A DNA stretch of 64,000 bases, taken from positions 32,001-96,000 of IMG/VR virus record IMGVR_UViG_3300028804_000001. One strand, given 5' to 3'. The translations under genes were made by a program, and so were the position numbers. Of the stretch, positions 4,312-45,540 are shown one piece after another. Position 1 is the first letter of the stretch, and each line of letters begins with the position of its first letter. This DNA is from a virus. Lineage: Duplodnaviria; Caudoviricetes. A model generated the notes under the pieces. That model made no database searches, was not told the origin of the DNA, and saw only the letters and a program-made list of their open reading frames with translations.

Positions 4312-4383
4312 TCGGAATAGCAGGATTTGAACCTGCGACCCTCTGCTCCCAAAGCAGACGCTCTACCACTGAGCTATATTCCG
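4312..4383 (-). tRNA. tRNA-Pro(TGG)
   Basis: CGGAATA/TATTCCG acceptor stem, GCTCAGTGGTAGAGC D-arm, TCTGC-TTTGGGA-GCAGA anticodon arm, GGTTCAAATCC T-arm; CCA not encoded. Confidence 0.93.
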
Positions 4384-18213: not shown

Positions 18214-19452
18214 CTATTCACCTTCACTCTTTTTATTTCCGGACTTCACTTTAACGTAACCGGCATTCGGTGTCTTTGAAAAACAGGATTCGAGTAACTT
18301 TCTTATCTTATCATTCTCAACAAGAACTTCTAAGTTCTTTTTGTTCACTGATATATCTGCAACACTGAGGAGCTTTTCCCAATCTTTCTTTCCAAAGCTT
18401 TCCTTCTCAAGCTTTTCCTGAAATAAACTGGGTGAGAATACATCTCTTACAGTTGTTTGGATAGAATAAGAACCCTTGGTCTCTTCGATTCCAGCTTCTC
18501 CAGCAATGATAAGAGAATCCTGCAGTGCTACTTTTCTAGCATCAAGCTGCTTTATGAGTCCCTTGATTTTATCAAGAGCCTCAACTTTTTGCTGATTAGT
18601 AAGAAGAGTAACATCTGTTACATCTTTAAGAGCAAGGATAGCAGCTTCTGATGCGTTAGCATGCACAGGACACTTGCCATTAAATGCACAGCTATTGCAA
18701 TGAGGTCCTGCCATATACTCCAGTTTTCTTCCAGGAGTCTTTTCTCTAAGAGCCAGAATATGATCTTCCAAATGAGAGATAGTCATCTGAACTTGATTCA
18801 TAAATTCAGTTGAAGTTTCAGCGGACATGATTACATCAAACTGCTTATCAAGCCTGATGTAATCAATAAGACCTTTAACTTGGGTTCTTTGAATCTTAGC
18901 CTTAATAGATTTAGGCTCAAGACCAGCATTGGCAAGGAAATCCTCAATTGATCTCATTACCAGGCTTATATAGATTTTCATCTGCTCAAAGTCAGCAGGA
19001 TTAATATACTGCGCAGTTTTATAGTCTACGATCGTAACTGTATTGGAGTCTGGCTCATAGTAGGCAGTATCGATCTGACCACTAAGAGCAATTACTCCTC
19101 TACGACTGAATCGCTCTTGAACCAATGCAAGTTCATTAGCTTTCTCAATTCTTAACGGAAAGTATTCTCTAGTTTTAATCCGATCTACATACTCTACTAT
19201 GAGCTCATCTTTTTCATCAATCAGACTATGATCAGTTCCAACTTCCCAGTTTTCCATAATAGAATGGAACTTCTTACCGCGGCTTGCACCTTCTTCATTT
19301 CGTGCCTTCATATGAGGCATCAGGATCCTGGCCAGGGCAAGGCCATCACACTTTGAAATATAAAAGTAAGATGATGCACTAATCACCATCTCACTTTCAA
19401 TAGTTTTTGGGTTAATAATAACCCGCGGCTTAACTGGTTCTAACTCGTTCAT
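18214..19452 (-). CDS. PD-(D/E)xK (RecB/Cas4-like) exonuclease
   Basis: GKKFH, GQID, IVDYKT, QMKIY, CNSCAFNGKC. Confidence 0.85.
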   Translation of the reverse strand: MNELEPVKPRVIINPKTIESEMVISASSYFYISKCDGLALARILMPHMKARNEEGASRGKKFHSIMENWEVGTDHSLIDEKDELIVEYVDRIKTREYFPLRIEKANELALVQERFSRRGVIALSGQIDTAYYEPDSNTVTIVDYKTAQYINPADFEQMKIYISLVMRSIEDFLANAGLEPKSIKAKIQRTQVKGLIDYIRLDKQFDVIMSAETSTEFMNQVQMTISHLEDHILALREKTPGRKLEYMAGPHCNSCAFNGKCPVHANASEAAILALKDVTDVTLLTNQQKVEALDKIKGLIKQLDARKVALQDSLIIAGEAGIEETKGSYSIQTTVRDVFSPSLFQEKLEKESFGKKDWEKLLSVADISVNKKNLEVLVENDKIRKLLESCFSKTPNAGYVKVKSGNKKSEGE

Positions 19453-21413
19453 GGTTCATAGTCCGTATTAATCTGGTCTGAAGTGAATTCTATCTTCTTA
19501 TTTTCAGTTAGGGCAAACCTGTCAATAATACTAGGAACAATTACGTTCTTAATAATCCTATTAACAGATCTTCCATTCTCATTTTTATTTACCTTAGAGA
19601 CAATGTAATCAAGAATTTTATCCCGGTCAGGAAATTCTACTTCCACTGTTCTAAAGATCTCTTTCATAGTCTTCTTGAGTCTTACGTCAGCTACTTGTTT
19701 AAGCATAGCTTCATCAAGAGACTTAAATACCAGAACATTATCTACTCTATTAACGAATTCAGGCCTCATTCCATTTGATACTAGAAGTTCTTTAACTGCA
19801 GCAATAGAAACTTTACCTTCTTCTTCATCTTTACGATCGGCTTCATCCATAAAGCCAACTTTGCCCATGCCTTTCTTTCCAATTTCTTCTGCAGCTGCAT
19901 TACTGGTCATGAACATAATGCACTTAGAGATATCATGAGTTCTTCCAGAAGATTCTGTAAAAGAACCTTCATCGAGAAGATTCATGATACCATCTAAGAT
20001 ATCATCGTGAGCTTTCTCAATTTCATCAAAGAGAATAACACAAGGATATTTACTTTGAAGCTCTCGAGTAAGAAAGGTTCCTTCATTATATCCAACGTAG
20101 CCTGGAGCAGAACCAAACAGCCTATTAATATGATGACTGTTCTTGAATTGATTTAAATCAATTCTAATGATTCTATCCTCGGATCCGTAACATACTCGAG
20201 CAAGAGCCTTGGCAGTTTCAGTTTTACCGGAGCCAGTTTGACCAACTGCAAGTACAACTGCTACTGGTTTATTCTGCTCGGATAAGCCTAGATGCTTCTT
20301 AATAATAACATTAACAATTTCTCTTTCGTTCCTATGAGATAGAACTACTTGAGATCTAACATTATCAATGATATCAGCAGAAGTAAACTTGAGCTTAATT
20401 CCAGATCCAATTTCATCTTCTGTGAATCGTGAGTTAAGAGCCATAGCTCTAATAAAAGATTCCTGGGTAGCTGAATCTTCCGCTACTACTTCAGATTCAT
20501 AGAATCTACCTTCGAATACTTCTTTAGATTCTCCGGCGAGCTTAAGAACAAAGGAGTTAGCAACCATGAGATATCTTCTAAGACTATCTTCTTGGAGATA
20601 GTATCTATGTTTGAGAATAATCTCTACATACTTATAGATATCTGCTCTCTTAACTCCTCTAGCTTTAAGCCGGTCTATAATGATATCCCGGATTTGATCT
20701 TCTTTAAATGGTTGAACTGGATAATATACAAAATCATCAGCATAAACATGCCGTTTCATTTGATGCATCTTATGATTAGGAACACAAACAATAAGGACTA
20801 TTTGCTTGAAACAATCAAATAGTCTCATGAAGCCAGAAACATAGTTACCTTCGTAAGATTGAGGAGGAATAAGATGCTTATCGAAATCATCAATGATTAC
20901 GATCGCTTTGTCTTTTACTCTTTTGGTAGTTCCTTTCTTGGCACCTTCTACCAGCTCTACAACTTCCTTTTCCAGAGCTGCTACACTGGCACTCCGATCC
21001 TTTAATGTTGAGAGATTATTAGTATTATCAAAGAAAATTACTTTAGTCGGATCTGGAGAAATAGATCTTTGGATATTAACGATTGCCTCAAGAAGGGCAG
21101 TCCTACCGATTCCTCGGTCACCATGAATTACAATAGGTCCTGTTGAAAATACAAATGATTGGTTAATCAAATTGCATAAGTCTACTACTTCATTATCTCT
21201 ATGGAGTAGATTACATTTACGGCCGTTAGCTAAAGTAAAGTAAAAAGGAAGACCCGGAGGGTTAACCTCCGAGTCCTCATTAATCAACCTGTTGAGATTG
21301 TTTACTTTACGAGCTGTGGCTGAGTGTTCAGACATCTCTCTCGTCATATTGGCCACGGTCTCCTCTGTTGTTTCCTCTATCGCCACCGCCTTTTTTACCA
21401 ACGTATGGCTCAC
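19449..21413 (-). CDS. ClpA/ClpB-type AAA+ ATPase with degenerate first AAA module
   Basis: D2: GQTGSGKTETAK, LFGSAPGYVGY, LFDEIEKAH, RPEFVNRVD; D1 Walker motifs degenerate (GIGRT, IDDFD). Confidence 0.9.
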   Translation of the reverse strand: MSHTLVKKAVAIEETTEETVANMTREMSEHSATARKVNNLNRLINEDSEVNPPGLPFYFTLANGRKCNLLHRDNEVVDLCNLINQSFVFSTGPIVIHGDRGIGRTALLEAIVNIQRSISPDPTKVIFFDNTNNLSTLKDRSASVAALEKEVVELVEGAKKGTTKRVKDKAIVIIDDFDKHLIPPQSYEGNYVSGFMRLFDCFKQIVLIVCVPNHKMHQMKRHVYADDFVYYPVQPFKEDQIRDIIIDRLKARGVKRADIYKYVEIILKHRYYLQEDSLRRYLMVANSFVLKLAGESKEVFEGRFYESEVVAEDSATQESFIRAMALNSRFTEDEIGSGIKLKFTSADIIDNVRSQVVLSHRNEREIVNVIIKKHLGLSEQNKPVAVVLAVGQTGSGKTETAKALARVCYGSEDRIIRIDLNQFKNSHHINRLFGSAPGYVGYNEGTFLTRELQSKYPCVILFDEIEKAHDDILDGIMNLLDEGSFTESSGRTHDISKCIMFMTSNAAAEEIGKKGMGKVGFMDEADRKDEEEGKVSIAAVKELLVSNGMRPEFVNRVDNVLVFKSLDEAMLKQVADVRLKKTMKEIFRTVEVEFPDRDKILDYIVSKVNKNENGRSVNRIIKNVIVPSIIDRFALTENKKIEFTSDQINTDYEP

Positions 21414-33109: not shown

Positions 33110-35872
33110 TTACGGGCCCACCCTTTCCAACATACTGAACATACTTGGTTCCACTTTCTGTTCGATGTTTCCTTTCAGGAACTTACGAACAGTATCTTGT
33201 GAAGATTGATGCCTGATCATAGTGAATACTGGACTAATGTGGTCCAGAAAATCCCTTTGATTAGGAAATTCAGATTTATCTTCAAGATAGGTCCAGAACA
33301 GTTCATACAGATCTTTAAACTCTTCAGGGTTAGCTCCACCTGCTTTAATGCAGGCTGTTAACTCTGCATCTACCATTTCTCTAGATGGCAGATGTGTACC
33401 GTTATCATCTGTACGGGCAGCACGAGCAAAATCACACAATTTACGTGCATGACTTCCCCCGCCGTGCTTATTACTCAGAGAGTTTTCAGCTACGAACCTA
33501 TAGAACTGTAGTCCTCTTGAAACGCATTTCTCATTCTTCTCATTCTGATGGAAGATTAACCAACCAATGAATGATAGAGCGAGACTGCCAACAAGAGCGG
33601 TTTCCTTCTTGATATTACCCATAGCCCATCCAGCTTGAAGGCTGTTCTGATCTATGAGTTTAGTTGTCCAGAGTGTGCCACAGAAGTGATCCCAGTTTGA
33701 TTTATTTTCAAATTCCATATTCTTAAATGTGGAACTGATACCAATCATATCGGGGTGAGTAAGAGTATCAAACTCTTTCTCCCATTTCATTCTGGAAGCA
33801 CCTTCTCCTTCTTCCTGACATACTTGATCAACGATCCATTTGATATTCCAGAGTTCATCATTACTAATAACCTCATTCAAATGCATCTTCTGAAGATCTG
33901 AATATGCAGCAGGATCACTCGGAACAATACACAGCAAAGCATCTCCATCAAAGTCTCCTCTCAAGAGTGAGATGAGAACTGGATGGATGCTTACTGTATC
34001 TGTATACTTAGGAACCACTGATACTGCAAACAATTCACATTCATCATGAACTGGATGTCTGCACAGTAGAACCATTGGTTTCTCTCTGAACCATGGATAC
34101 TTTCTACTGAAAGCTCTAAATGCTCTTTCAGGTATACCGACCTGATGGATTTCAAGATCTGCATCTGCTGATGCAACACCATATACATAACTACCAGTAT
34201 ATGGACTGTTGTGTTTACTAACACAATCAGCAATAACTGATGTTAAGCATACGAGATACTTTTTACGTTCTCGATCTATTTTCCATAAGAGAGATGTATC
34301 CTTATTCTTTTCATACTGGGTTGTAAACAGTACAATGTTATTAAGATGTCTAGCCAGCTGATTTAGAACATACAGTCCCCAGTCATTTGCATAAACATCT
34401 GCAAATACAGGAGGCATGATGATGTCCATCTGGTTGCCTTTTCCATCGTATGTCTTTACATACCCATACTTCTTTCCGGAAGCAATATCTGGATCAAGAA
34501 CGGTTCCAACATATTCATCTTTCATATCTTCTGAGATACCAGTATCAAAGAAGGTCCTATAATCAGATCCACCTGGCATATACTTCCAGATTTCCACTAG
34601 CTGTTCATTTTCAAATGAACCAGTCAGCGATTTGATTACAGTATTATAGATCTTTTGAAGTCTCTCATCTTTGATAGGAAGAGATGTTGCCCACTTAAGT
34701 AGATGTTCAGCTCCTCTAATATACATCAGCAAAAGCAGAGTATAGGTTAGCTTAACACCTTCAAGAGACGGGTTAAATTTCTTATCATCGTGAGACTTCG
34801 TTGTCCACTTTAAAGTTTCGGATGGAATCTTATCACATCTATAAATTCTAATTACACCATGTGGTGCATCGAATTCAAGATTGTTCCATTGAACTTTACA
34901 AGTGTGAGAGATGTTATTGGTTTCCATCCAGGATTCAAGTTTGCTTCGGATGCTAGAAACAGAATTACCACTGCATAGTTCAAGCAGCAGCTTTTCATCT
35001 TTAGTTTCATGCCATACGAGGCTTGCCATTTCTTCCAGGAAACTTGCGGGAGTGCACCGTTTTCCAACTTCAAATGGAATCAGAATATCTGCAGAAACCC
35101 CATTAGCGGTAGGCATTTCTTCATCTGGAAGGATCTTACCAATGGTAAACTTATGGCCTGTTTGGTTCATAAGCTTATCGCCAACCATTAGCGGAGCAAT
35201 AGATTTATAAACGATCGTGTACCGTTTAGTGTGATCTCTATTTGTAGGACTCTCTGTTATTGAGACTACTACAGCTCCCCATGGTAGTTTAACCTTGGTT
35301 CGTTTATGCCTTACTGTTTTAATCTCTACACCATCTCTGCCAGCCTTTGTAATTTCAAAGGAGCAGATAAGCTGTCTAGGTCTAACAAAGTGAATTGCAG
35401 ATTCCTTAAACTTGGAGATTGCAGATATTACCTCAGGGAAATAGTGAACTAAATCATATTTCTGCAGCAGCTTATCATGAAACTGCCCCTGACTGTAATA
35501 CATCATACGAAGGTCTTCTTCAGGAGAAGTAGACTCTTCAATTTTCCAGGTTACTTTAGATTCCAGCGGAACTTCAATATCTTGAACTGTAACTTTATAA
35601 GCTTCCAGTTTCTTTGCGGCAGACTGACTTATAATACATGAATCATTTAAGGTTCCTATATCATAGAATCGAACTGCATGTAGATTCACACTATCCAGTT
35701 GAGGATTAACATCAGCTTGATAGTGAATTGGAGTATCCGGATTAAGGAGTGGAAGTGCACTGTGAGTAGATCGTAGAATCACTCTCCGTTTACCATCTAT
35801 GAATTCCGGAAAATATTTTTCCGATTTCGAGATGGAGAATGGATAACTGTTAGCTTCTGCGGTTAATTTCAT
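33110..35872 (-). CDS. DNA-directed RNA polymerase, fusion of beta C-terminal region and beta' catalytic region
   Basis: beta motifs DSCIISQ and VGDKLMNQTGHKFTIGKILPDEEMP...DILIP; beta' motifs VGIP, LLCRHPVH, IHP and GDFDGD. Confidence 0.9.
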   Translation of the reverse strand: MKLTAEANSYPFSISKSEKYFPEFIDGKRRVILRSTHSALPLLNPDTPIHYQADVNPQLDSVNLHAVRFYDIGTLNDSCIISQSAAKKLEAYKVTVQDIEVPLESKVTWKIEESTSPEEDLRMMYYSQGQFHDKLLQKYDLVHYFPEVISAISKFKESAIHFVRPRQLICSFEITKAGRDGVEIKTVRHKRTKVKLPWGAVVVSITESPTNRDHTKRYTIVYKSIAPLMVGDKLMNQTGHKFTIGKILPDEEMPTANGVSADILIPFEVGKRCTPASFLEEMASLVWHETKDEKLLLELCSGNSVSSIRSKLESWMETNNISHTCKVQWNNLEFDAPHGVIRIYRCDKIPSETLKWTTKSHDDKKFNPSLEGVKLTYTLLLLMYIRGAEHLLKWATSLPIKDERLQKIYNTVIKSLTGSFENEQLVEIWKYMPGGSDYRTFFDTGISEDMKDEYVGTVLDPDIASGKKYGYVKTYDGKGNQMDIIMPPVFADVYANDWGLYVLNQLARHLNNIVLFTTQYEKNKDTSLLWKIDRERKKYLVCLTSVIADCVSKHNSPYTGSYVYGVASADADLEIHQVGIPERAFRAFSRKYPWFREKPMVLLCRHPVHDECELFAVSVVPKYTDTVSIHPVLISLLRGDFDGDALLCIVPSDPAAYSDLQKMHLNEVISNDELWNIKWIVDQVCQEEGEGASRMKWEKEFDTLTHPDMIGISSTFKNMEFENKSNWDHFCGTLWTTKLIDQNSLQAGWAMGNIKKETALVGSLALSFIGWLIFHQNEKNEKCVSRGLQFYRFVAENSLSNKHGGGSHARKLCDFARAARTDDNGTHLPSREMVDAELTACIKAGGANPEEFKDLYELFWTYLEDKSEFPNQRDFLDHISPVFTMIRHQSSQDTVRKFLKGNIEQKVEPSMFSMLERVGP

Positions 35873-36620
35873 TCTCTAAAACTCCTTTCTTAAGTGCGAA
35901 TATATTAAATGTTGCTCCCTGACTTACATCGCTGAAATCGAGGATATCGCATTTAATAATGTTAGCATCTTCCAGAGATGTAAATATCTCAGGAATGATG
36001 ACTCGAGAAGCCATATCATTGATTTTGAATTCATCGAATTCAATGGAATGGGAAATCCAGCGGAATGCCAGAGTTCCAATACTTATTGCTCTTTTAATCA
36101 TCCAGTTGCTATATATGTTCTGCTTAACAGCAGCTCTGGCGGTATTCTCAATAGAAACAATTAATGCTTCTTCAAGAATATCAGATGCTCGTACATAGCT
36201 CCATTCATTCATGTCATAGATATTTTCACTTAAAGTGCCAATACTACTCCATGCTGCTTTCATTACTGGATTAACTAGAAGTTCAGGATCGGCAAGTCCC
36301 TCCATGTTGTTAATATATCCCAACGCCCCTAATTTCTCATGGGGTTGGACTTCACAACATAAACCATTGAGATAGCTTACATAAAACTTACTATCTGGAA
36401 TACCATACATTATATTTCCATAGATATGACCTTGATAGGTTACATATCTACGATCTATAAATCTTGGTATGAATACGCTGATTTCTTTGTTAAACTGTTG
36501 AGCTGGCAAACTCATATTTACTATGAGCTTATCTGTTCCACAATTAACTTGTTCAATATCAACGTTTACTTCAAGTCCAGAATAGTTCTTTCCACCACTG
36601 AAATATTCTAGAAGCTTCAT
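35850..36620 (-). CDS. possible separated N-terminal fragment of RNAP beta
   Basis: VFIPRFIDRRYVTYQGHIY loosely resembles beta IP.MT..GTF.INGTER; overlaps the fused RNAP gene. Confidence 0.4.
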   Translation of the reverse strand: MKLLEYFSGGKNYSGLEVNVDIEQVNCGTDKLIVNMSLPAQQFNKEISVFIPRFIDRRYVTYQGHIYGNIMYGIPDSKFYVSYLNGLCCEVQPHEKLGALGYINNMEGLADPELLVNPVMKAAWSSIGTLSENIYDMNEWSYVRASDILEEALIVSIENTARAAVKQNIYSNWMIKRAISIGTLAFRWISHSIEFDEFKINDMASRVIIPEIFTSLEDANIIKCDILDFSDVSQGATFNIFALKKGVLENEINRRS

Positions 36621-37261
36621 TATTCACCATCCATAAATCCAGTTCTAAAAGTCTTGGGACTTTTCTGGATTTCTTCTTCTTGATCTTCGAACTTACCAAC
36701 CCACTCCTGAAATTCTGCTGTTCCAACGATTCCATTCATAATTGTTTCAAAGAGAACCGTGGACATTTTAGCACTGAAGTTATCAGCGTTTGTTACATCA
36801 GCTTTCTCTCTTGCAATTGGCATTGCTCGATATAAAGGCTGGACGATAACACTATAATAGCCACCAGGAATGTGTGGGATTTCATCAAGATACCCGTGTT
36901 CTTTTGATACTTCATAAATATCACCGTTTACAGGATTCATCTTGAGTGGGATACGATGCGTCATTGATACTTCAGCATTGTACAGGATACCCTTCTGTTC
37001 GAAGGTTCCGCTGCCAAGGACTGAAGTTGCAAGGAGATGAAGATGTCCTCTTTTTCTGTCTACAGTAGCGGACAGTCTTAACCCAACAAACTTTTCCATT
37101 GCAGGGTTAAAGGATCCATTACAGTTTTCAGATAGGAACTTCTCAATCTTAATAACTGCCTTACCATCGGGCGTAGTATCGGTTACAGTTCCATACGCAT
37201 ATGGAACTCCGAAGTTTACACCGGCTAGATATCGGTAGTTTCTAGTTTCTTTGGTTTGCAT
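36620..37261 (-). CDS. hypothetical protein, first gene of the RNAP operon
   Basis: TTTTTCAG-GTCAC-GGAGG-TTTAA-ATG start context. Confidence 0.7.
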   Translation of the reverse strand: MQTKETRNYRYLAGVNFGVPYAYGTVTDTTPDGKAVIKIEKFLSENCNGSFNPAMEKFVGLRLSATVDRKRGHLHLLATSVLGSGTFEQKGILYNAEVSMTHRIPLKMNPVNGDIYEVSKEHGYLDEIPHIPGGYYSVIVQPLYRAMPIAREKADVTNADNFSAKMSTVLFETIMNGIVGTAEFQEWVGKFEDQEEEIQKSPKTFRTGFMDGE

Positions 37262-37384
37262 TTAAACCTCCGTGACCTGAAAAAGTAGTGGACGTGCGGT
37301 GTTTTTGAGTAATTGTTCGAGTGGCCCTTCAATAGGGTCCTCGAACTGAGGTACGATCTATCATTCAGGATTAGTTTTTTAGTA

Positions 37385-38881
37385 ATGCCAATAAGAACGA
37401 CAGCACCAGAATCAACCAGCCGCAACACTATTGGGGAGATTTACCCTGATCAAGAGAACGTTCTCTATGGATCAAGAGTATCAGATATATTAAGCTTCCT
37501 TCCAGATAACTTGAAGGATCGATATAATGATATTATTAAGAATCAGAATGTTAATGCTTTAAATTCAAGCGGCAAAGATGTAATTGTAAATATCAATAAC
37601 TTTGAAACTCGTGATGCTAATAACAATAACAAGCAGAGCGACTTTATACCAGATGCTTATTGGAAGAATCAGGATCTCGGCCGTAAGTATGAAGCTGTCC
37701 AAAGTCAGATTTTAGATAATCAGATTAAGCAGCAGCTAGCAGCTCAGAGCAGTAATCTCAGTCCCACTGAAATTGCAGATCAGCAAGCCAGGCTTAATAG
37801 ATCCCTTAGATTAGATAAGGTTTCCGAGTCATTAGTTGGCTTACCAACTCTGGATCCAGAAGCTGCCGATCAGTTTGTTATAGCAGCTGGTAATAACTCG
37901 ATGTATATGATCCAGCTCCAGAAGGCTATTGATGATTTAATGAGTGCGTACGGGAATAGAGTAAGCTTTGGAACTGTATTCAGAAATCCAACATCTAATA
38001 AGGTATCTACTATTCCTGATTTTAGAACTGGGACTGTCAGAGACCGGCTGGCTTCTTCTGCATTAATATTATATCAGCTGGTTCAGATTGGAGCCCTTAA
38101 GCCGGAAGATGAACTTAATATCCGGCCTATTAACATTAAGACTGGTGAGTTTGAAGTATCTCAATCAGAGATTGCTTATAACAAAGAAGCTCGTAAGCTC
38201 AAGCTGCCATTGAAGGGCCAGTTTAAAGTTAACTCTAGAATTACTACTGTTGGACAGAAGTATCATACATTTACTGGTGTAGATATCAAAGTAGCATATG
38301 CTATTGGATATTCAGTAGGTAATCTTGAAGGGTTAAGTATGATATCGTGGTCCATCCACCGCGGTAAGCCTGATGCTCCTCGAGGTGATGAAGTAGCTCC
38401 TACATATAGAGCTCGCGGTCGTCGAACGATCGCTGGTAGTATGATATTCACCATGTTTGATGAACATCCTATTACAGCTATCTATCCTCCAAACTTCTTC
38501 CCTCAGGATCCGGATTTTCAGATAGATTCTGCCGTAAGATCGGACTTTCTTAAGCCTGACCAATTACCTGCATTTGATTTGTTTGTTATTCTTACAAATG
38601 AATATGGCTATAAGTCCATTCTCTCTATCTTTGGAGTAGAGATTATGGATGATGGTGGTTCATTAGGTATTAATGATCTTGTTAACGAGGAAGTTATTCA
38701 ATATACTGCAAAAGATATTGATTTACTTCATCCTGTTAAAGTTGATGAAAATGGATTAATAGATCCATTCGAGTTAGCTTCATTGCAATCTGGCAAGATC
38801 TTCGAACGTAGATCAGTAATTGCTGGGTATGATACTCAGCCGGCTTTCTACGATCAATATGATGAATATAACAATGTCTAG
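37385..38881 (+). CDS. virion structural protein, tail-tube-like C-terminal domain
   Basis: FTGVDI, ISWSIHR, GRRTIAGSMIFTMFD, DQLPAFD, NEYG, YTAKDI as in large myovirus structural proteins; start reassigned to MPIRTT. Confidence 0.7.
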   Translation: MPIRTTAPESTSRNTIGEIYPDQENVLYGSRVSDILSFLPDNLKDRYNDIIKNQNVNALNSSGKDVIVNINNFETRDANNNNKQSDFIPDAYWKNQDLGRKYEAVQSQILDNQIKQQLAAQSSNLSPTEIADQQARLNRSLRLDKVSESLVGLPTLDPEAADQFVIAAGNNSMYMIQLQKAIDDLMSAYGNRVSFGTVFRNPTSNKVSTIPDFRTGTVRDRLASSALILYQLVQIGALKPEDELNIRPINIKTGEFEVSQSEIAYNKEARKLKLPLKGQFKVNSRITTVGQKYHTFTGVDIKVAYAIGYSVGNLEGLSMISWSIHRGKPDAPRGDEVAPTYRARGRRTIAGSMIFTMFDEHPITAIYPPNFFPQDPDFQIDSAVRSDFLKPDQLPAFDLFVILTNEYGYKSILSIFGVEIMDDGGSLGINDLVNEEVIQYTAKDIDLLHPVKVDENGLIDPFELASLQSGKIFERRSVIAGYDTQPAFYDQYDEYNNV

Positions 38882-43155: not shown

Positions 43156-43237
43156 TGTTCCGGGCGAGACTTGAACTCGCACAGCTTGCGCCGAGGGATT
43201 TTAAGTCCCTTGTGTCTACCGATTCCACCACCGGAAC
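43156..43237 (-). tRNA. tRNA-Leu(TAA)
   Basis: GTTCCGG/CCGGAAC acceptor, AGGGA-CTTAAAA-TCCCT anticodon arm, long variable arm, GAGTTCAAGTCTC T-arm. Confidence 0.93.
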
Positions 43238-43243
43238 TTAATG

Positions 43244-43317
43244 TGTCTCGAGAAGGATTCGAACCTTCGACCCTTTGCTTAGAAGGCAAATGCTCTATCC
43301 AACTGAGCTATCGAGAC
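43244..43317 (-). tRNA. tRNA-Arg(TCT)
   Basis: GTCTCGA/TCGAGAC acceptor, TTTGC-CTTCTAA-GCAAA anticodon arm, GGTTCGAATCC T-arm. Confidence 0.93.
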
Positions 43318-45466: not shown

Positions 45467-45540
45467 TGGGCCCACCTGGACTTGAACCAGGGACCAAGAG
45501 ATTATGAGTCTCCTGCTCTAACCAACTGAGCTATAGGCCC
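45467..45540 (-). tRNA. tRNA with CAT anticodon, probably Ile2 (lysidine) type
   Basis: GGGCCTATAGCTCAGTTGGTTAGAGCAGGAGACTCATAATCTCTTGGTCCCTGGTTCAAGTCCAGGTGGGCCCA; lacks the initiator C1:A72 mismatch and the three G-C anticodon pairs. Confidence 0.88.

Follow-up and report, generated by a model that had tools for sequence, protein, structure and literature searches.

We analysed a 64,000-nucleotide stretch of DNA (hereafter the window) that corresponds to bases 32,001 to 96,000 of a contig of an uncultured phage (225,628 bp, or 226 kb; genome G000 C1; IMG/VR record IMGVR_UViG_3300028804_000001). The locus in question consists of three consecutive genes, which code for proteins of 213, 256 and 920 amino acids (aa) in this order. 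The 213-aa and 256-aa open reading frames (ORFs) overlap by 1 nt (TAATG), and the 256-aa and 920-aa ORFs overlap by 23 nt. The 920-aa protein has both double-psi beta-barrels (DPBBs) of cellular-type RNA polymerases (RNAPs). Judged from sequences and structure models, it corresponds, together with the 256-aa protein, to a real, conserved and probably active minimal RNAP of cellular type in a two-gene layout. Relatives were sought among 1.84 billion representatives, and related loci carry L numbers below; family residue counts refer to 43 members, and the family profile was built from 37 relatives. Coordinates of the features are collected in Table 1.

Table 1. Features of the locus and of two related loci. 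Positions are those of the window unless another locus is named; residues are those of the 920-aa chain.
Feature	Position	Strand	Basis or remark
213-aa beta-strand-rich protein, first gene of the operon	36620-37261	minus	conservation in the split clade
256-aa chain, split-off N-terminal piece by homology; predicted beta protrusion and fork, too short for the lobe	35850-36620	minus	HHalign, spacing, motif
920-aa large chain: beta C-terminal half and compact, near-complete beta'	33110-35872	minus	profile and model
beta C-terminal part (residues 1-401), DPBB-B with D77, K233 and K241	34670-35872	minus	structure comparison, hidden Markov model (HMM)
Flap, or sandwich-barrel-hybrid motif (SBHM), insert (residues ~91-225), characteristic of the cellular-type clade	35198-35602	minus	model
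beta'-like part (residues ~402-920): clamp elements, switch 2, DPBB-A, bridge helix, trigger loop, short C-terminal clamp	33110-34669	minus	model and HMM
Catalytic DFDGD (D640, D642, D644)	33941-33955	minus	sequence
Predicted bridge helix (residues 737-775), invariant K755	33548-33664	minus	model helix; assigned by position, conservation and alignments
Predicted trigger helix/loop (residues 781-805), invariant Y791 and K802	33458-33532	minus	assigned by position and conservation
TTTTTCAG motif, candidate early promoter or processing site	37277-37284	minus	last of the 16 copies, 16 nt upstream of the 213-aa start
801-aa ORF	60579-63302	minus	directly upstream of the TTTTTCAG region
Three-piece form, 226, 351 and 550 aa	L049, 3272-6653		coupled start and stop codons
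Two-piece form, beta of 657 aa and beta' of 546 aa	L096, 5001-8617		cut at the beta/beta' boundary

Sequence and predicted structure of the 920-aa chain

The 920-aa chain combines sequence motifs of both large RNAP subunits. Its beta motifs are D77, G231-D232-K233 followed by K241, and I247-L-P-D-E-E-M-P254, and its beta' motifs are R605-x-P607 and D640-F-D642-G-D644. Two-barrel polymerases share eight invariant residues, namely four aspartates, two lysines, an arginine and a proline (PMC2919709), and all eight were found in the chain (D77, K233, K241, R605, P607, D640, D642 and D644). Each of them was invariant in 43/43 family members except R605, which was conserved in 41 of the 43. Residue 604 (34061-34063), beside the catalytic R605, is Cys in the window and Gly in the database copy P0002.

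Pfam RNA_pol_Rpb2_6 matched residues 75-291 above its cut-off (E 9e-10), and Rpb1_2 matched residues 597-663 weakly (E 0.054). The families PF00562 and PF00623 each had a single match in the whole genome, in both cases the 920-aa chain. The 37-relative profile gave the C-terminal beta subunit (betaC) of phage AR9 as the top match (E 3e-25), followed by cellular beta (E ~1e-22) and beta' (E ~4e-17). AR9 betaC was also the best sequence match in the PDB and among cultured phages.

The chain was modelled with AlphaFold2 at a mean predicted local distance difference test (pLDDT) of 86.7 and a predicted template modelling score (pTM) of 0.87. Residues ~10-400 of the model superposed on the C-terminal half of beta/Rpb2 with Z scores of 18-24, AR9 and phiKZ betaC included. 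The two barrels, at residues ~60-350 and ~557-670, matched the beta and beta' barrels as well as stand-alone DPBB domains, and the range 91-225 aligned to the beta-flap domains 3tbi_B and 3woe_A (Z 6.1-6.6) and also to biotinyl-type domains. Residues 417-920 aligned with residues 14-1266 of Mycobacterium tuberculosis beta' (452 residues, Z 12.9) and with almost the entire Rpb1 (Z 14.7); Z scores for beta' ranged from 11 to 15 overall against cellular and AR9/phiKZ subunits. Since this part was aligned across nearly all of Rpb1 and beta', the chain carries more than the catalytic region. With the HMM, the chain mapped to residues 666-708, 799-822, 1048-1143 and 1194-1294 of Escherichia coli beta, starting near 650, and to residues 319-493 of E. 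coli beta'. Model alignments and HMM together placed the beta' clamp, switch 2, bridge helix and trigger loop on the chain, all in shortened form. The stretch from DFDGD to the trigger loop is only ~155 residues long, compared with ~470 in E. coli; the greater part of the funnel and jaw is missing.

The initial annotation, made from the sequence without database searches, had described this chain as holding the motifs of both barrels and as far below the size of cellular beta plus beta'. Both statements were confirmed by the eight invariant residues and the two modelled barrels, and by the combined length of the 256-aa and 920-aa chains, which amounts to 43% of that of beta and beta' together in E. 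coli. It had also described the chain as the beta C-terminus fused to the catalytic region of beta'. The fusion on one chain stood, but the beta' part was too narrowly drawn, as it is near-complete in the model.

The 256-aa chain and the family of split and unsplit enzymes

About 35 single-chain proteins of 1,020-1,270 aa matched the 920-aa profile from their residue ~290 on. When the family of the 256-aa protein was compared by HHalign with the N-terminal ~270 residues of these unsplit relatives, it aligned over 210 columns with a probability of 97 and an E value of 1.2e-10. The sum of the two chains, 1,176 aa, agrees with the ~1,170 aa of the unsplit single-chain family. Most unsplit proteins have ~53 residues between the last conserved motif of the front piece and the first of the large piece, and for joined split pairs the figure was 52-65. 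The front piece was present in 7/7 split lineages. By this homology, the 256-aa ORF codes for the N-terminal piece that was split off from the enzyme.

The initial annotation had noted a weak resemblance of this ORF to the beta N-terminus. Its relationship to the front of the unsplit relatives was upheld, while a direct match to cellular beta was non-significant: the best alignment, to E. coli 120-155, covered the expected hairpin in register with a probability of 0.2%. We therefore base the predicted protrusion and fork on position and motif, a fork-like motif being recognisable by eye.

Four layouts were found in one family: one chain, betaN|betaC-beta', betaN|betaC|beta' and beta|beta'. The 213-256-920 cassette occurred again in L001, L002, L003 and L011, and the 256-920 pair in the short contig L050, with identities of 27-51%. 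L010, L012 and L015-L017 are unsplit, L012 and L016 lying on contigs of 218 and 234 kb. The scans of IMG/VR and GTDB gave no member of the split clade, and the JGI scan gave no new one.

The seven betaN-split forms made one clade in three trees (FastTree support 1.0; SH-aLRT at least 97.9). This clade was sister to an unsplit clade and was nested among further unsplit lineages, suggesting fission of an already fused ancestor of ~1,170 aa and no new fusion. L049 fell inside the split clade and L096 far outside; the beta|beta' cut occurs in both, in distant branches. Gene order in the split forms was always that of the single chain. The simplest reading of these sequence comparisons would be that the ancestor had a single chain, which was cut independently at least three times. 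The nesting indicates that a split can be a secondary state in phage polymerases, which is relevant to the suggestion that such enzymes are relics of pre-cellular times. As outgroups we used larger Arash-like fused RNAPs of ~1,800 aa and mReC-like beta'/beta pairs (L018, L019, L043 and L020-L048). A tree that placed the family inside mReC had a very long branch (1.75) and was treated as unreliable. The initial annotation had regarded the enzyme as minimised from the cellular type. As a description of similarity this was borne out, by the flap and by the beta and beta' matches; actual descent from that type is one possible direction.

Comparison with known RNA polymerases

The closest resemblance in the cut was to the non-virion RNAPs of AR9 and phiKZ (PDB 7s00, 7ogp; PMC7598289), which, like the predicted two-chain enzyme, are two-barrel enzymes of cellular type without alpha or omega. 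Their beta is cut at the same linker: model residues 11-355 correspond to 7s00_C 17-541, and residues 10-370 to 7ogp_C 12-611. They differ in having four core chains, with a different chain for each barrel and a beta' that is divided after its barrel, whereas the 920-aa chain holds both barrels, all of beta' and the trigger loop in a total of ~1,176 aa for the pair.

Both barrels lie on one chain in several other systems. The Rpb2::Rpb1 protein Orf6 of the yeast killer plasmid pGKL2 (982 aa) is likewise a minimised cellular-type enzyme and is similar in size. It is described as keeping the beta N-terminus, having no detectable trigger region, and being eukaryotic and cytoplasmic (PMC2919709), whereas in the phage enzyme the N-terminus is a separate chain and the main chain carries the trigger loop. 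Salmonella phage Arash (gp206 and gp216; PMC10585845) and Vibrio phages D69, D148 and D181 also have a beta-beta' fusion, and Arash gp206 matched the family profile (E 1e-41). The Arash enzyme, however, is larger (1,525 + 606 aa), is cut after the DFDGD barrel and was found in virion preparations. While gp206 ends ~90 residues past DFDGD, the 920-aa chain continues for 276 residues, which contain the bridge helix and trigger loop. In Helicobacter, the beta C-terminus is joined to the beta' N-terminus as well, in a full-length cellular enzyme that requires alpha, omega and sigma (PMC2919709).

The single-subunit enzymes YonO, P23-45 gp64/gp96, phi14:2 gp66 and QDE-1 (PMC10770324) are compact, with both barrels on one chain and a lysine in the trigger region. 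Z scores against the 920-aa model were 13.0 for QDE-1, tying with beta', 11.9 for P74 gp62, 9.8 for P23-45 gp96 and 7.4 for phi14:2 gp66. YonO-type enzymes lack the SBHM insert in the beta-type barrel (PMC7824862), whereas the 920-aa chain has this flap insert and resembles beta and beta' of cells in sequence.

The RNAPs of mReC phages (PMC7481178) are also phage-encoded, cellular-type and metagenomic. They differ in their separate beta and beta' genes of ~900-1,060 aa, their canonical trigger-loop motif, and a distance of ~350-410 residues from DFDGD to the trigger loop. The canonical bacterial core differs in its alpha dimer and its use of sigma70; neither is encoded in the 226-kb genome, in which no match to alpha (RNA_pol_L) or Sigma70_r2 was found. 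A lone helix-turn-helix of the Sigma70_r4 type lies outside the window at genome positions 109585-109671 (plus strand), in a frame of ~143 aa.

Fused and split two-barrel enzymes are already known in general, which limits the novelty. Reviews describe four- and five-chain enzymes, YonO-like enzymes and mReC, and fused cellular-type derivatives have been mentioned in passing (PMC10770324). In the literature searched, we found neither the ~1,170-aa family nor the betaN|betaC-beta' layout described, although a brief earlier mention is possible as coverage was incomplete. The family brings in a further group of phages (~220 kb) that encode an RNAP, one that is missing from current reviews.

Genome setting, proposed role and alternative explanations

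The contig begins and ends with a direct repeat of ~134 bp (genome 1-134 and 225496-225628). Because its first bases recur at 225,496, it is probably a complete circular assembly; the IMG/VR entry lists it as linear and 83% complete. The 8-mer TTTTTCAG occurred 16 times on the coding strand between 37277 and 60490 (minus strand, ~23 kb), compared with 0.4 copies expected, and many copies lay 5-10 nt before a Shine-Dalgarno sequence. L001 had seven coding-strand copies, one of which was upstream of the 213-aa homolog as in the window. This region resembles the early promoter arrays of P23-45, suggesting a non-virion polymerase that is made early. The RNAP operon ends the motif-marked region and stands first among the replication genes, at a long distance from the structural module, which is where a non-virion polymerase would be expected. 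No common promoter motif was found for the replication and late genes.

We consider it highly probable that the 256-aa and 920-aa proteins constitute one DNA-dependent, early-made non-virion RNAP, which descended from a single-chain minimal enzyme by a cut. We infer that the two proteins assemble into an active enzyme of ~1,176 residues that works without the alpha platform. The 920-aa chain would join the two barrels into one active site, where D640, D642 and D644 together with D77 would bind Mg2+, and K233, K241 and R605 would hold the nucleoside triphosphate and the RNA end. The predicted bridge helix and trigger loop would power nucleotide addition, and the 256-aa chain would give the protrusion and fork elements lining the RNA-DNA hybrid. 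The enzyme may have come from a single-chain minimal enzyme of large phages, cut at the linker that is also cut in the non-virion beta of AR9 and phiKZ. Expressed early from the TTTTTCAG-marked operon, it would then transcribe replication and later genes, and it could itself be the reader of TTTTTCAG. Motifs of the rifampicin pocket were not recognisable by eye; by analogy with other phage enzymes, the enzyme is likely to be resistant to rifampicin.

Several observations weigh against this interpretation. The split clade departs from two usually conserved sites, E. coli beta E813 being replaced by N76 and beta' R352 by Y564. The beta lobe, funnel and jaw are largely absent from the two chains, and therefore processivity or promoter opening may need extra factors; no promoter-specificity subunit was identified in the genome. 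The family of the 256-aa protein gave no significant match to Pfam, the PDB or the phage/E. coli beta profile. The family tree could not be rooted reliably with an outgroup (branch length 1.75), and no carrier of the family was found among the cultured phages of INPHARED.

If correct, this interpretation would mean that a catalytic core, flap, clamp, bridge helix and trigger loop fit within ~1,176 residues, which amounts to a natural deletion map of a cellular-type RNAP. Two or three small genes would also make a minimal transcription machine and sigma-free promoter recognition open to direct test.

Whether the third gene belongs to the enzyme was considered next to this. The 213-aa protein might be an obligatory third subunit, serving as a split clamp, as a stand-in for the lost lobe, or as a promoter-specificity factor like phiKZ gp68 or AR9 gp226. 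Its gene comes first in the operon, is coupled to the 256-aa gene, and preceded the front piece in 6/6 split-clade loci having full upstream DNA; no homolog was found beside unsplit or beta|beta' enzymes at the six loci examined. The genome is without sigma70 region 2, and non-virion RNAPs of jumbo phages have a fifth, sequence-unrelated subunit (PMC13282480). However, the 213-aa protein showed no match to the 256-aa family, to unsplit N-termini or any other part of the unsplit chain, or to beta N-termini, and no detectable RNAP homology, which corrects the initial annotation where it grouped this ORF with the 256-aa and 920-aa proteins. The predicted fold was of low confidence and uninformative (pLDDT 46, best Z 4.4), with Atlas matches below 0.8. 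A predicted complex of the 213-aa and 256-aa proteins with residues 12-560 of the 920-aa chain scored 0.00 with an uncertain partner fold and was not used as evidence. In addition, a larger block that includes the opposite-strand gene of ~500 aa is conserved in the split clade, and the linkage of the 213-aa gene may thus reflect common descent only. The protein may be an accessory subunit or merely part of this conserved gene block. An obligatory role is compatible with the two-piece enzyme and is a possibility to be taken seriously, though not the one we would expect.

The 801-aa ORF had been proposed in the initial annotation as a second, architecturally different DPBB RNAP, implying a transcription cascade. 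Were it an active two-barrel enzyme, it could read TTTTTCAG and switch on the 256-aa/920-aa enzyme. It has the motifs DG, R...K, RYP and DGDD in the order of YonO and RNA-dependent RNA polymerase (RdRP)-type enzymes, it lies directly upstream of the motif-marked region, and cascades of two RNAPs are established in P23-45, phiKZ and AR9. However, its metal loop, DGDD, is one residue short of DxDxD. The ORF had no homolog among the scored candidates and no Pfam, PHROG or PDB match, and its Atlas model (pLDDT 0.36) was unusable. Its gene has a GC content of 0.48 against a gene median of 0.38, the highest among genes of at least 200 aa, and is flanked by hammerhead-like sequences of type I (~63250-63300) and type III (~60580-60635), which were seen by eye and neither of which was called by Rfam. 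GC content and flanks suggest that it may be a separate inserted element. Moreover, no 801-aa homolog turned up in L001, which has the motif, although this genome is partial and the point is accordingly weak. We regard this role of the 801-aa ORF as unlikely; as its RNAP identity was not borne out, the proposed cascade is conjectural, although a cascade as such is plausible from the genome layout.

An alternative candidate for the first enzyme of a cascade is a tail-module ORF of 2,780 aa (L013 6117-14459, minus strand; genome 173116-181458). It has a DxDxD-like loop, DQDSD, with an Arg ~38 residues before it. A single relative was found (P0156, 91% identical, with the loop kept), and there was no PDB match. 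From its sequence it is a possible, putative virion RNAP. A broader proposal would make the two-chain enzyme an autonomous alpha- and sigma-free RNAP near the minimum size, from a family freely cut at two fixed linkers, with the 213-aa protein as a new assembly or specificity subunit and with one or two unrelated two-barrel enzymes (the 801-aa and 2,780-aa ORFs) in the same phage. We think this broader proposal unlikely.

The split could instead be ancestral, a relic of modular pre-cellular polymerases, with the single chains arising by fusion. The betaN|betaC breakpoint is shared with the non-virion RNAPs of AR9 and phiKZ, early branching has been argued for split phage RNAPs (PMC7824862), and the root is uncertain. 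However, the split forms group together in a single clade, which lies among at least four lineages of unsplit enzymes, so that an ancestral split would require several independent fusions, and the two distant beta|beta' cuts and the constant gene order also argue against it. We consider this origin improbable. Finally, that the two overlapping ORFs are a broken gene, an assembly error or halves rejoined by programmed frameshift is hardly credible, because contigs from four runs cross the 256|920 junction without an indel, the identical split recurs across seven diverged lineages, a purine-rich stretch precedes the start codon of the second ORF at 5/5 junctions read, and the overlap elsewhere in split relatives varies from 8 to ~150 nt with no slippery site common to the split junctions seen.

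Returning to the surroundings of the two-chain enzyme, the opposite-strand gene (522 aa, 37313-38881, plus strand) stands beside the cassette in six split-clade loci with 34-71% identity, and matched PHROG 9206 'major head protein' over ~160 aa. Its copy in L002 is 924 aa long and contains an intein with a LAGLIDADG domain. Other inteins of relatives were found in L001 (17398-19035) and L012 (6077-7681), in the genes for ThyX (with HNH) and uracil-DNA glycosylase. The unsplit relatives adjoin a uracil-DNA glycosylase and an AAA+ ATPase, homologs of which lie downstream in the genome of the window. ClpB-like AAA+ ATPases follow closely after the RNAP in L010 (11904-13832), L012 (14176-16044), L015 (6802-9033) and L096 (9133-11268). 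A homolog of those of L010, L012 and L015 is located in the window ~12 kb downstream (19449-21413, minus strand), and a functional link is possible.

Four tRNA genes were called by Rfam on the minus strand of the window (4312-4383, 43156-43317 and 45467-45540). Outside the window, a run of sugar-nucleotide and glycosyltransferase-like genes occupies genome positions ~110000-126500, with RfbA-like and RfbB-like N-termini recognised by eye. The stretch itself was present in activated-sludge and wastewater metagenomes from several studies. Contigs from RNA libraries of one study span the cassette, which was not taken as expression since DNA carry-over is possible.

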